Shown here: in pieces, positions 806 to 8,801 of the stretch | Layout of the letters: every line of letters starts with the position of its first letter | How positions within the stretch are numbered: the stretch's first letter is position 1 | Assembly: GCF_001447785.1 (NCBI RefSeq) | Contig: NW_015161948.1 | Location: forward strand, 856,367-920,366 | Direction: 5' to 3' | Source: Gekko japonicus | Lineage: Eukaryota | DNA length: 64,000 nt | Made by a program: the position numbers and the translations under genes | Notes under the pieces: model-generated | Database searches by the model: none | Told to the model about the DNA's origin: nothing | The model's input: the letters and a program-made list of their open reading frames with translations, nothing else

Positions 806-899
806 TAGTCTAGCAACAAATACAAAGCTTGAATAATTGTGTGGTTACTACTCTAGACCAACTGCTACCAAGTTCTCATGTCATAGTTTTTATAGGACT

Positions 900-1280
900 A
901 TGGAGGAAAATGGTACAGAAACTGAGAAGCTGCTGAAGAGGGTTCAGGAGCTGGAAGATACTGTGCAAAGTTTGCAAGAAAAACTCCTAGAGAGGACGGA
1001 GACCACAGGCACAGGAAGAGCCCCTCCAACAGCTGGAAAAACTAAGAAGCGCCAGCAGCGGCCATTTGATTTTAGTGCTTCTGGCCGGAGACATGTAGCT
1101 CTGAAGATAGCCTACCTGGGCTGGGAATACCAGGGCTTTGCTAGCCAGGAGAACACCACCAATACTATTGAAGAGAAACTGTTTGAGTCTCTAATCAAAA
1201 CCCGGCTGGTGGAGAGCAGGCAATCTTCTAATTATCATCGCTGTGGGCGCACAGACAAAGGAGTCAGTGCCTTTGGACAG
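900..1280 (+). CDS. PUS3: PUS3 coding exon 1
   Basis: ATG 900, MEENG...RTDKGVSAFGQ, donor GTAAGC at 1281. Confidence 0.95.
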
Positions 1281-4200
1281 GTAAGCACTACCTTTGTTAG
1301 ACCTCTATGTGGGATTGTTGGCTTGGGTGTGAAGTTTAAGACGGCCACTCTCTTCTTTCATTTTTCCCTCCTTTCTTAATGCATCCTCTCCTGTTCTCTG
1401 ATTAGATCTATGAGCAGGGAGTGGATTGACTAACAGCAAGCATTTGTATTGCATTATCAAAGTTACAGTCAACGTTAAATTAAAAGATTGAAATTTAAAT
1501 ATATCGACACTTGGGTCTCTGTTGTTCAACAGACTTGAGCTAGTAGTATATAGGGATTAAAAAAGTTATGTGTTTAGTTCCAAGAAATAAATACTAAATA
1601 AAACACATTTGTAAGGCATTAAGGCAGCACAGTAACTTGTACCTTTATTGACCAAAACCCTTTTTCTACAGTAACTTGTACCTTTATTGACCAAAAACCT
1701 TTGTCATATTTTGCTAATCAACTGATAATTAAGAGACATTTAGAATTTTAATTTCAGGATTACTATTGTTATGTTGGGTTAGTTCCAGATGAAATTTTCA
1801 TCAGCAGAACAGAAAGTTTCCTGGCTCTCCCCCTCCTAGTGCAATCTACCAACCTCCACAAAATTCTGTTGCTGGAGGATTGGGGACCCTGAGGATCAAT
1901 GTGAGGAAGTCCTGTTATGGGATGGGGGAATCAGTGGAAACTTCCAATGTAGCCAACCTAACCCACTGACACCCTTGTTTTCCACCGCATGCAGGCAGCT
2001 CAGGAAACTTAACTGGATAAACACTTCCTTAGTACCCAGAAGTAATTTAATAAGGAGCCAAAGGTATTTGCTGTCAGTATCTGTTTGAGGAACTGTATTG
2101 TAACTTATTAAAAACTGGTATTTTTGTTGAGTTAAAGGGGATGAATTTATCAGGACATCATGAGAAGGGTCGCAAGTTACATTCTATCATCAGCTTCCAA
2201 ATAGAGTTTCAAAGTGGAATTTCTAAAAATTATTATGTGTACCAATTTATTTGTTCTTGTTTTACACATGTAACTGTAGAATATAATACTTCTCTCCAAT
2301 GCTTCAGGTGATCTCCCTGGATCTCCGCTCAAACTTTTCAGAGAAGACAGTAGATGAACCTGGGATTACCACAAAAGACAAAGCTAGCAGTACATCTGAG
2401 GAGATCCGCTACACCCATATTTTAAATCGGGTGCTCCCTCCTGACATACGAGTACTGGCCTGGGCCCCAGTAGATTCCAACTTCAGTGCGAGATTCAATT
2501 GCCTGAAGAGGACATATCGCTACTTTTTCCCTCATGGTGACTTGGATGTAGCTCTCATGAATACTGCAGCACAGAGATTTGTGGGAACTCACGACTTTCG
2601 TAATCTATGCAAAATGGATGTAGCTAATGGTGTGACCAATTTTCAAAGAACAATTCTCAATGCAGAGGTGCAGCCTGTGGATAGAGAGATAACCAAGCAA
2701 CAAGACCCTTTCCGAATGTACCAGTTTGAAGTGACAGGCCAGGCGTTCCTCTATCATCAAGTCCGTTGTATGATGGCTATCCTCTTCCTGATTGGACAAA
2801 GGATGGAGAAGCCAGAAATCATTGACGAGTTACTGGATATAGAGAACAATCCTAGAAAACCACAATACAGGTAATACTTGGCTAAAAAAACCTTAAGCGT
2901 ACTCATGTTAATCTGTTACAGCAAAAATTAAGAAGAGAAGAGATTGGATTTATACCCCGCCCTTCACTACCCAAAGGAATCTCAGAGCATCTTACAAACT
3001 CCTTTCCCTTCCCCTCCCCACAACAGACACCCTGTGAGCAATGTTCCCTCTAAGCTGTGGAGTCTTGTGAGCAAACATTCTACTTTGTGAGCTACTGGCG
3101 TTAAAGTTGTGAGTGAGTGATTTGGCTGCTGCATAAATTAGTTTGCTCTGGAGCCCTCCTTCCTGAAATAAGGCAAAAATGTGTGAGCCGGAGGCTAAAA
3201 ACTGTGAGCTAGCTCACACTAACTCAGCTTAGAGGGAACACTGCCTGCGAGGTAGGTGGTGCTGAGACAGCTCTGACAGAAACGGCTCTTTTTCCAGAAC
3301 AGCTCTTATCAGAACTACGGCTTGCCCAAGGTCATCCAGCAGCTGCAAGTGGAGGAGTGGGGAATCAAACCCGGTTCTCCCAGATTAGAGTCCGCACACT
3401 TAACCACTACACCATACTGCAGTCATAGTGGTCTTATTGTGTTGGCTATGGGTTTATGTAGCCCAGTGTGGGTGTTTCCCAGCCCTGTTCTCTGAAATCT
3501 CTTTAACTGGACATTGAACCTGGGTGCTTTTGTAGCAATGCATATATTCTACTATTACCTCCTGACCTGGATGGCCCAGGCTAGCCTGATCTCAGAAGTT
3601 AAGTAGGGCTAGCCCTGGTTAGTGCTTTGGATGGGAGACCACCAAGGAAGTCCAGGGTTGCCACACAGAGGCAGACAATGGCAAACCACCTCTGAACATC
3701 CCTTGTCTTGAAAACCCTATGGAGTCACCATAAGTTGGCTGCACTTTCCACCATCTCCATTAGCTAGGGGTCTTTCCTTCTGTCCCACAGTACCTTAAGG
3801 ACTGACATTATTGCACATCCGAGGAGACAGCCTTGTCTTTACAAGCTTGTGCAATAGATTGCCTTAGAATGTCTCAAGATTCTGCATTCTCTGTTAAATT
3901 AACATGTGAAAATTGGGGTGTGTGGAGAGGAGTCAGACTTAGTCTAGGTGGCACAAGTGGCACTTGTCCATTGCTGAACTCTAGTGTGCTCTCAAGTGTT
4001 TTGAACTGGGGACAAACAAATTATGCGGAGAGGAGACCTGTAGAAATACAAACAGTAAATACACACCAGAATTGGACTTCCACACAAATTCTGTCTGTAG
4101 CACACTTGGCCCCAAAGGTAAGGTAGTACTGCCTTGATTTATTGGAATCTAAAACTATATGGATTCATGATTATTCATATTGCATCTGATTAGTCTGATG

Positions 4201-6289: not shown

Positions 6290-6671
6290 TGTTTCTATTT
6301 CTGGGACTACCTCTTTATACATATCTATGCATGTATTGATACAACACTCTTCATTTGTGGAGATACTCCTCCAAGACTAAGAGATGTCAGTGTTTTGCTA
6401 CTTTGAGAAATAAACTTTTTATGTTGACTTCGAGGTATTTAAAGAGAGATTGGGAAACCACCATACTGGCTCTGCGGTTTCTTTCAAGATGTGCTAGTAG
6501 AAAAATAAACAAATGGTATTGATGTTTTAACCAATTGCCTAGTAAACAATAAAAGATGTTGGGTACAAAAAGACTGCAGAGAACAAATCCAAGATTAACT
6601 AAATCCACTGCTTAGGCTATGCTAGGGAAGAAAAAGGAAAGTAAGTAGTTTTCTATTATAGACACACTATT

Positions 6672-8455
6672 TTCTTTTCGTTTTTTTAAATCCCCGTAGG
6701 GATATTTTTTATTTTGCATATACTACAAACTACAAAGAAATATAGGGGAGGGACTACAACTAGGGATAAAGAAAAGCAAACCACACTAGACTAAAACCCC
6801 AAGAGAAGGAGATCTTTTCACTGTTAGTAAATATGTTAGTACCATTAGTTTTATTATCACAATATACTTGTTGAGTTCTTGCTTATAACAATTCGCTTCT
6901 TGTATGTTATTTTGTTAGTTGTTATGAGAGAAGTCTCTGATCATCTTCTTATTCTTTGCTTCAAAAGGCCATTTTCCAAGTCCTTCTGCCTTTACTTCGG
7001 CTTTCTGTCTCTAAAATCGTATACCACTCTGGCAGGTCCTGCACCCTTTTCTGCCGCAGAATCCTCTTCCGTTCCCGAGGTAGCAGAGTCACTCGACTTC
7101 GATTCTCCCTCTTTAGACTCATCATCTGTCCCCAGCAGACATTTCAAAAATTCTTTAGCTTTAAAAGTGGAGTCTATTTTCTCCCTTCTATCGTTGATCT
7201 TAAAGATCTTCCGGAACCACCCATCTGTACGATATTCCATTCGTTTGAAGAAAATAAATTAATTCCTTGTAATTTTTCCTCTTTTGTCTAATTTCAAATG
7301 GAATGTCCTTTAAAATTTTAATGGTTACATTTCCCATTTTCAGTGGAGTTGCTGATGTTGCTTTAAAATGGCATCTCTGGTTTGTCTTCTTGAAAACTTG
7401 ACCACTATTTCTCCAGGTAGGCTATTTTTTTAATATAGCCCTATAGGCTGTCTCCATTTCGTTTACCAGTTCATCCGCTGTTAAACCTACTACTGGAGCG
7501 ATGATCTCACTGAGCACCCTCTTAAAGTCTTCCCGATCCGTTTCAGGAACCCCCTGAAACCTGAGAATCATGTTAGCTTTTTCCATCTGAAGCTGCAAGA
7601 CTCGATTCTCTTGGCAATTCTGCTTCATTTCCACCTCTCCCATCCTTTTCTTCAACTTCTTACTTGTGGTGTCAATCTCTTTAATTTTCTCGTTTGCCTG
7701 CTCCACTTTTTTCTCCGTCTCGTTCAGCTGAAGCTGCTGTGCCGCAAAGTTTTTATTCATCACAGTCAATTGCTGGTTAATACCATCGAGTTGTTCCATC
7801 ACCGGCTTGAGCATATCCGCCAGGAGTTTGAGGACATCTGCTCCCTCTTCTGATCTCGGACTCTGCCCGCCCGGCTTCGTTTTAAACTTTCTCTGCTGTG
7901 CTGCCATCTTTCCCGTTTTGTTTACAGTTTCTGCCGCTTCCCCACGACTCGGAAAACTCGCCAAACGACTTCGCAATTCAGATAAGTCTCTCAAAACACT
8001 TTCGGTTTACTTCCTCCCCTCTCCCTTCGTGTCTTAACTGCTCATTCACAAAAGAGGCGTCCCTCTTTGCAATCTGTTTCCAATCGCGAGGGGGGGAAAT
8101 CACTTTTCAAACTAATCTGTTTTTATTCAGAACTCACGTTCATTGTTGGCCAGTTTATCTGACCATGCTCGGTTTTACGCCATTCCGCTTGATCTCTGGC
8201 GCTTGTCCCGGTCAGTCCAGCTTATGCCCGAAGGCCACTCAGCAACTGGACCGTCGGGGCGGAGGGGAGCCTCAATTCTCCGGCATTACGCCATTGAAGA
8301 GGCTACCCCTCAAAAGCCCCCTGGCCTGGAGCCTATCGCAAAGGCTCCACGGGGGTGTCACTTGAGGTGGCACCCCTCCAGGCCGCTGGTGTGCGATTCA
8401 CCCTCCTCCGTTGTGAGGAGAGCATCCGCCATTGCTGTTCCGTCGACCGGAAGTC
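6672..8455 (-). mobile_element. Full-length ORF1-only L1-clade retroelement (HAL1-like)
   Basis: 16-bp TSD TTATAGACACACTATT (6656-6671, 8456-8471); 5' end GACTTCCGG...CAATGGCGG; ~550-nt CpG-rich 5'UTR; frameshifted ORF1 7907-6992; AATAAA plus A-rich tail; no ORF2. Confidence 0.85.
6992..7907 (-). pseudogene. L1-type ORF1p (coiled coil + RRM + CTD) broken by ~3 frameshifts
   Basis: MAAQQRK...heptad coiled coil...ANMILRFQGVPE; shifted frames continue LPGEIVVKFSRRQTRDAIL, TIKILKDIPFEIRQKRKNYKELIYFLQTNGISYRWVVP, then INDRREKIDSTFKAKEFL and an acidic tail. Confidence 0.8.
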
Positions 8456-8801
8456 TTATAGACACACTATTGATAAAGAGAGAAGCAATAGAACCAAGCA
8501 TATTCTAATATGGAATAATTCTAATAATGGAATAAACACAGAATAGACATTCAAAATTCACTTTTGTAAACGTTCACTCTAATAATTACATCACAAAAAC
8601 AGTGTGGCCTGTGTTTAAAATTCAAGTTCATATTATTTGTGGTACCACAGTCATCACCTCTTTCTCCCTCTGCTCAAGTGTAGCACACTACAGTATATTA
8701 CTCTTGTTCAGTTCCCAAACAGATTTTGCATTATGGTAGTTACCCACCTATACTCCTATTGTATTCACTAGGCATCCTTTACAGATGTGCATGCATGTAT
8801 A

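Follow-up and report, generated by a model that had tools for sequence, protein, structure and literature searches.

A many-copy ORF1-only retrotransposon family in a gecko, likely HAL1-type and of separate squamate origin

Is a short unit that begins like an L1, carries ORF1 without ORF2 and ends in an A-rich tail one damaged L1 copy, or does it belong to a family that is copied by the machinery of another element? The question is raised by a unit in the stretch of gecko DNA analysed here, which is 64,000 nt long and is called the window below.

The window unit and its copies

A perfect 16-bp direct repeat (6656-6671 and 8456-8471, 100% identical) is the sole perfect long repeat within 6400-8800. 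As a target-site duplication (TSD) it encloses a 1,784-bp unit on the minus strand (6672-8455), with the boundaries that had been given in an earlier note on this DNA. The features of the unit, from its 5' to its 3' end, are the following:

8456..8471, minus strand: 5' target-site duplication, 16 bp, same letters as 6656-6671
7908..8455, minus strand: 5'UTR, 548 nt, CpG-rich, with a lizard clade-1 L1-type terminus; putative internal promoter
8206..8455, minus strand: predicted multibranch RNA structure, ~250 nt, with a topology common to lineages A, B/C and D
6992..7907, minus strand: ORF1 (coiled coil, RRM, CTD, acidic tail), dead by four deletions
7010..7021, minus strand: codons for the C-terminal Y-D-F-R, a predicted nucleosome acidic-patch anchor, untranslated in the window copy
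6688..6991, minus strand: 3'UTR, ~300 nt, unlike the UTRs and spacers of the sampled L1s
6708..6713, minus strand: AATAAA polyadenylation signal
6690..6703, minus strand: terminal hairpin with a 5-bp stem and a UNCG-type loop, between AATAAA and tail
6672..6687, minus strand: A-rich tail
6656..6671, minus strand: 3' target-site duplication, 16 bp

The unit begins GACTTCCGG...CAATGGCGG, and this terminus, described earlier as L1-style, matches the start of lizard clade-1 L1 in the consulted part of its published description (PMC5381506). The 5'UTR, put at ~550 nt and called CpG-rich, was measured at 548 nt, with 54% GC and a CpG observed/expected ratio of 0.85 against 0.30 across the window. 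An ORF1 is present as proposed (ATG at 7907, TAA at 6992-6994), but the figures of ~305 codons and ~3 frameshifts were revised: ORF1 of the intact sibling L009 has 310 codons counted from the matching ATG, and relative to it the window copy has lost 10, 1, 1 and 5 nt near 7439, 7432, 7365 and 7208. Because of these four small deletions its first frame ends after 161 codons. The proposed 3' layout was upheld, with ~300 nt of 3'UTR followed by AATAAA, a short hairpin and the A-rich tail, and a tblastn search of the 64-kb window, with the ORF2 proteins of two L1s as queries, detected no ORF2 homology (E<=1e-5). Both junctions between flank and element are spanned by contigs from a public DNA run; the unit ends are therefore no assembly artefact, unless that run is the source of the assembly. 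Open frames at 837-2871 (plus strand), ~4 kb from the insertion, may be exons of a tRNA pseudouridine synthase gene.

The window unit is a decayed full-length member of a many-copy 1.8-kb ORF1-only family, which rules out the single-copy origin that the earlier note had set against its own reading. A DNA search of the same genome returned at least 36 further near-full-length copies at 88-95% identity among the best 40 of 7,582 first-look candidates (37 of the 40 scored matches, window included, cover nearly the whole unit). When the protein of L009 was used as the query, all of the 127 scored matches (the best 127 of 32,850) were near full length at 76-100%. Among 30 loci selected by ORF1, 27 continue into the common 3' end, two run into N gaps and one is cut off. 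An exact 29-nt pattern from the 3' end of the window subfamily occurred 85 times and a 25-nt pattern from a young subfamily 78 times, with no occurrence of either reversed control; all copy counts are lower bounds. Sixty loci with an exact 3' pattern were inspected, and ORF2 was joined to the family 3' end in none of them: 21 are unbroken over at least 1.5 kb, 34 are truncated or interrupted (several are 5'-truncated and flanked by TSDs), and five lie at gaps.

Some copies are rearranged. Internal deletions with both ends kept were observed in L215, L225, L238 and L258; the junctions in L225 and L258 have AG before them and GC or CC after them, and neither shows a clear canonical splice signal. 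L258 adjoins unrelated ORF2 pieces. ORF1-only copies sit within L1 ORF2 sequence at L062/L142 and at L158.

TSDs of 14-21 bp flank 34 of the 42 full-length copies with recognisable ends (15/19 in lineage A, 10/14 in B/C and 9/9 in D). The insertion sites are pyrimidine/A-rich, and an additional 5' G was found in 10 of the 34. Long TSDs, target sites of this kind, poly(A) and the extra G are what L1-type target-primed reverse transcription leaves behind when it copies a capped RNA.

ORF1, its lineages and its selection

The family encodes an L1-type ORF1p. The L009 protein, ~20% identical to human ORF1p, was matched by phmmer to human L1 ORF1p (2ykp, E 1e-4). In its structural model a long helix (residues 23-111) is accompanied by an RRM and a CTD, and the tail is disordered; human L1 ORF1p accounted for all of the top 11 Foldseek matches to this model (best E 1.5e-9). 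The proposed profile check with Pfam Transposase_22 was positive for six of 11 members at E<=0.1 and negative for L009, which stayed under the cut-off; ORF1s of this kind slip below Pfam cut-offs. The acidic tail is also present in related ORF1 proteins, so it is nothing peculiar to the window element.

ORF1-only elements of the genome fall into three deep lineages, and one of these is very young. Lineage A is that of the window unit. A database protein at 50% identity, P0002, led to lineage B/C (129 scored matches), and the 30 loci fetched have the 1.8-kb ORF1-only layout wherever they are readable. Lineage D, reached through P0011, is likewise ORF1-only and has TSDs. Lineages A, B/C and D have homologous 5' ends and a 1.6-1.9-kb layout at ~40-50% protein identity. 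Eleven of the B/C loci fetched (L071-L080 and L082) belong to a young subfamily with 98-100% DNA identity and a common 308-aa ORF that is identical in 10 of them; the subfamily is a candidate for current activity and insertion polymorphism. In three RNA runs a young copy was covered at a mean depth of up to ~25, 14 and 39 per strand class, and the window subfamily was covered by reads in two RNA runs; the reads lie on both strands, and own transcripts are inseparable from read-through.

In a 64-protein tree, which has flagged long-branch rows, no AU test and no mammalian rows, a single clade (100/97) unites P0002 with the three ORF1-only lineages; it lies within the clade-1 group, apart from the autonomous clade-1 ORF1s of the same genome. 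The gecko proteins P0005 and P0010, L1 clade-1 ORF1 proteins labelled 'apolipoprotein A-IV-like' at source, group with these autonomous ORF1s; this grouping and the clade-1 5' end fit the squamate host named in the earlier note. Word-indexed protein searches gave a single protein each; a full HMM protein search gave 651 matches, and of the 20 placed in the tree only P0002 fell in the ORF1-only clade. P0002 is at most 67% identical to any match scored in the gecko genome analysed here, so the lineage is likely present in another species. The ORF1-only lineage likely has a single, ancient origin in a clade-1 L1, either extinct by now or unsampled.

ORF1 is under purifying selection in the copy-making lines. 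In 29 copies picked by DNA similarity only and compared with L009 as reference, changes private to one copy gave a pN/pS of 0.92 and included 19 stops. The ratio was 0.45 for changes in two or three copies and 0.35 (0.16 without CpG sites) for changes common to at least four, a class that takes in L009's own mutations. We calculated dN/dS on 58 of 64 copies, leaving out six with compensating frameshifts. Between subfamilies inside lineage A or B/C it was about 0.15-0.33, mostly 0.15-0.25, and five between-subfamily pairs at 0.15-0.23 had upper 95% bootstrap limits of 0.22-0.34. Lineage A against B/C gave 0.30-0.40 at a dS >1.1, near saturation. Values within subfamilies of protein-selected copies were 0.27-0.57 in most groups rather than 1, owing to the selection of intact copies and to substructure. 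Neutral private changes together with purified divergence between subfamilies indicate that inserted copies decay freely and that the source lines kept ORF1. What the earlier note had predicted of a family, namely many copies alike at both ends with TSDs of their own, intact ORF1 copies and a dN/dS <1, was thus found.

Mobilisation and the structured RNA ends

The parent was searched for among 60 L1 loci (40 long-spacer and 20 clade-1). The long-spacer L1s were rejected, with ORF1 20-32% identical and no UTR in common; the clade-1 L1s are closer (ORF1 24-45%), and they were rejected with no UTR in common either. The parental L1 that was to be identified was therefore not among the 60 loci; a lizard clade-1 L1 is suggested by the 5' end and by ORF1. 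An L1 inter-ORF spacer had been named as a possible source of the 3'UTR, but the window 3'UTR was unmatched in the inter-ORF and 3' regions of these loci.

One locus, L105, was considered as the autonomous partner and rejected. At L105:3409-6800 an L1 ORF2 is followed by ~220 nt from the 3' end of an ORF1-only element, with a poly(A) tail. It is a chimera: the ORF2 reaches only to residue 988 of 1,257, and another ORF1-only subfamily is the source of the 3' piece. Twenty-nine other matches to this piece were found, 27 of them preceded by ORF1 and none by the corresponding ORF2. L105 may have arisen by template switch or by insertion with deletion. The genome also contains groups of L1 copies that score equally, and more than one young autonomous L1 family in it has kept ORF2 intact (L163-L165, L098, L102, L104 and L153). 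The L163-L165 family, a young intact clade-1 family at >99.7% identity, is a candidate helper for the young ORF1-only subfamily.

In the strongly favoured reading, the 1.8-kb ORF1-only element is likely copied in trans by the ORF2p of an autonomous L1, to which TSD length, target sites and tails point. A source copy would be transcribed from the CpG-rich 5'UTR, giving a capped, polyadenylated RNA. This RNA is probably coated by its own ORF1p, preferentially in cis, and such coating would account for the selection that keeps ORF1. An L1 ORF2p, most likely of clade 1, would then be captured at the poly(A) tail and insert the RNA by target-primed reverse transcription.

It is very improbable that the 1.8-kb units are instead recurrent by-products (of premature polyadenylation, splicing or deletion) of autonomous L1s hidden by the fragmented assembly. 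The assembly does consist of 191,500 contigs, the searches score the best 40-150 candidates, and L105 has ORF2 joined to a similar 3' end. However, the 3' piece of this chimera follows ORF1 elsewhere, the three lineages have kept homologous 5' ends and one layout despite their protein divergence, and among those clade-1 L1s of the genome in which both frames can be read, most have ORFs that overlap or lie a short spacer apart.

The ends of the element are predicted to form conserved RNA structures. Folding of the first 256 nt gave z scores against dinucleotide shuffles of -4.9 for the window unit, -7.2 for a young copy and -6.9 for lineage D. The three folds were computed independently, and of the 89 pairs in the window unit 87 recur within two columns in the young copy and 77 in lineage D, at sequence identities of 72% and 55%, respectively. 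When the sequences were aligned with no regard to structure, 82% of the cells pair, against 40-54% in slid controls. Two-sided changes were found in 66 cells versus 34 after shuffling (0/500) and pairs with a two-sided change numbered 27 versus 23 (39/500), in a test that takes its structure from one of the sequences and is inflated by their relatedness. The antisense strand of the region folds about equally well (z -4.4 and -5.1).

No Rfam family came near its gathering score on the 5' region. A covariance model with default filters gave no match at the 5' ends of autonomous L1s; with the filters off, two of them were matched where the fold would be expected, L170 (E 0.045, best of 13) and L161 (E 1.7), whereas L164, L165, L168 and L178 were not. 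Matches as poor as these argue only weakly for a fold common to autonomous L1s.

The same covariance model found a 1.3-kb element (E 1e-4; E 4e-9 with a sequence-only model) that belongs to a further family, with 31 near-full matches among the best 40 scored and a TSD in 24 of 25 copies. Over 111 nt its 3' end is 77% like that of lineage D, and hmmsearch --max detected no ORF1 in the family. A 121-codon ORF is under no clear selection and is frameshifted in 15 of 24 copies. The minimum-energy fold of the 1.3-kb element is weaker (z -2.8) and partly different. Members of the family (L291:8010-9308 on the minus strand, and L292-L316) share the 5' domain with the ORF1-only elements and have a 3' hairpin of the D type. 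The 1.3-kb family has the look of a non-coding satellite that accompanies these elements. Its spread indicates that such ends can move without strictly requiring ORF1 in cis, and weighs toward the ends being mobilisation signals. We consider it somewhat favoured that the conserved 5' fold works as RNA, where it would aid ORF2p capture or translation. Nothing relevant to a conserved 5' RNA domain on a LINE was found in the literature searched, and such a domain, if true, would be new.

The terminal 3' hairpin is kept in all lineages with a varying stem length, as might be expected if the helper were another LINE (CR1, L2 or BovB/RTE) that recognises this hairpin, as in stringent LINE-SINE pairs. 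Squamates carry CR1, L2 and BovB in large, active populations, according to a published survey (PMC6050309). Judged by insertion signatures, a helper of this kind is nevertheless highly improbable, since the 14-21 bp TSDs, poly(A) and A-rich sites fit the L1 pattern. Least credible is an origin from domesticated host ORF1 genes in the manner of L1TD1 or Lyosin, with one or a few such genes giving rise to the copies as processed pseudogenes; this would agree with purifying selection, with a canonical AATAAA ~20 nt ahead of the tail and with the domestication of reptile L1 ORF1 reported in PMC12129022, but not with several lineages that grew in parallel as subfamily ladders, a youngest lineage of dozens of near-identical TSD-flanked copies, and an L1 terminus at the start of every full-length copy with no introns or fixed flanking exons seen.

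Known counterparts and the ORF1p C-terminus

The HAL1 (half-L1) elements of mammals reportedly go back to Smit in 1999 and to Bao and Jurka in 2010. In the consulted parts of later papers, HAL1s are mammalian ORF1-only L1 derivatives of several origins (PMC5753468, PMC5322556, PMC13756887, PMC8535693, PMC5786205). From these parts, they resemble the gecko element in having ORF1 only, a poly(A) tail and TSDs, in being derived from L1 and, probably, in requiring the RT/EN of another element; they differ in that the literature places them in mammals, whereas the gecko lineage likely descends from lizard clade-1 L1. The gecko element also differs from mammalian HAL1 in its three lineages with 40-50% protein identity, its very young subfamily, its ORF1-less relative, a 3'UTR unmatched in the sampled L1s, the conserved 5' fold and the 3' hairpin. 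The sequences place the family outside mammalian HAL1 by descent, at ~20% identity to human ORF1p and nested among squamate-type ORF1s in the tree, which has no mammalian rows.

Lizard clade-1 L1, described by Boissinot and Sookdeo in 2016 (PMC5381506), shares with the gecko element the 5' terminus, a long CpG-rich 5'UTR, the ORF1 clade and the acidic tail. The gecko element differs in being without ORF2, in a 5'UTR of ~550-610 nt and in a 3'UTR of ~300 nt versus 48-113 nt in six autonomous copies. Among insects, HeT-A (Jockey clade) and Ag-Sponge (CR1 clade) are described in the portion of PMC5786205 consulted as ORF1-only non-autonomous LINEs that are bipartite. Their way of life is alike, but they belong to different LINE clades and insect hosts, and no L1 3' part was recognised in the gecko element.

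No reptile HAL1 was found in the literature searched, although supplementary repeat libraries of squamate genome papers may list the family, and HAL1 is unmentioned in the consulted parts of PMC5203782, PMC5381506, PMC6050309 and PMC12129022. The suggestion of an independent reptile HAL1 family has gained ground from ORF1-only lineages in one squamate clade that combine a clade-1 5' end with HAL1-like features. Judged against published papers, the family is likely of the HAL1 type and arose separately in squamates. Squamates thereby join the hosts of ORF1-only elements, and in them this way of life can persist as a radiating lineage. The earlier reader had overlooked the three deep lineages (one of them young), the fold at the 5' end, the hairpin at the 3' end and the C-terminal motif described below. 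For mammalian HAL1, ORF1 retention and ORF2p capture are known by inference from sequence, as far as the consulted parts of the literature go. Identical intact young copies beside identical intact L1s, together with an ORF1-less relative, make the HAL1 question testable with natural sequences.

The motif Y-(D/N)-(F/L)-R closes all 11 aligned ORF1 proteins, after an acidic tail that is otherwise variable. A complex predicted for the last 34 residues of ORF1p with H2A and H2B of the same genome scored 0.75 versus 0.00 for the best control, by a measure whose calibration set leaves peptides and disordered chains outside, with controls that included no scrambled or basic peptide. The mark for this score is reached by 51 of 78 solved microbial pairs versus 2 of 108 mismatched ones, and by 39 of 65 solved eukaryotic pairs versus 2 of 126. 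Contact agreement between runs was at least 32%, and partner pLDDT was at least 46. In the prediction, the Tyr, Phe and Arg of the tail contact H2A residues 58, 61, 62, 65 and 93 (Met counted; Y57, A60, E61, E64 and E92 in mature numbering) and the adjacent H2B helices. Similar complexes have already been solved, so the score may reflect memory of them. As a lead from modelling, the conserved Y-x-(L/F)-R may dock on the nucleosome acidic patch.

The chromatin-binding site of prototype foamy virus Gag comprises Y537, L539 and R540 in the consulted part of PMC9040877. Its Y-x-L-R spacing is alike, and the contacts predicted for ORF1p fall on the same H2A residues as given there (PMC9040877); the likeness is one of four residues in an unrelated protein, and for ORF1p the binding is predicted only. 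Arginine-anchor binders of the acidic patch place Arg at H2A E61/D90/E92 with measured binding, whereas the ORF1p tail is a model only. We regard it as a tentative idea, with the odds somewhat against it, that the tail would tether the particle to nucleosomes. Nothing relevant to a chromatin anchor on a LINE ORF1p was found in the literature searched; if true, it would be new.

A more far-reaching proposal, which we hold to be doubtful, is that geckos harbour a long-lived system of parasites in three tiers (clade-1 L1s, jumping ORF1-only elements that have outlived their parent, and a non-coding satellite), with a shared 5' RNA domain for ORF2p capture and a nucleosome anchor on ORF1p. If this were true, the 250-nt 5' RNA domain of the non-autonomous tiers would capture ORF2p in trans, in a role that corresponds to that of the Alu domain, and a lizard ORF1p would bear a foamy-virus-like arginine anchor that ties its particle to nucleosomes.

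Autonomous ORF1s of the genome end in an x-x-T-R type motif in six of eight cases, versus Y-x-(L/F)-R in the ORF1-only elements, and anchoring to nucleosomes may be a general trait of clade-1 ORF1p in lizards. The H/Q-x-x-T-R type C-terminal motif was observed in the autonomous clade-1 ORF1s L162, L164, L167, L172, L177 and L180, and the chromatin tether of cytomegalovirus IE1, with residues taken from the consulted part of PMC9040877, resembles these ends.
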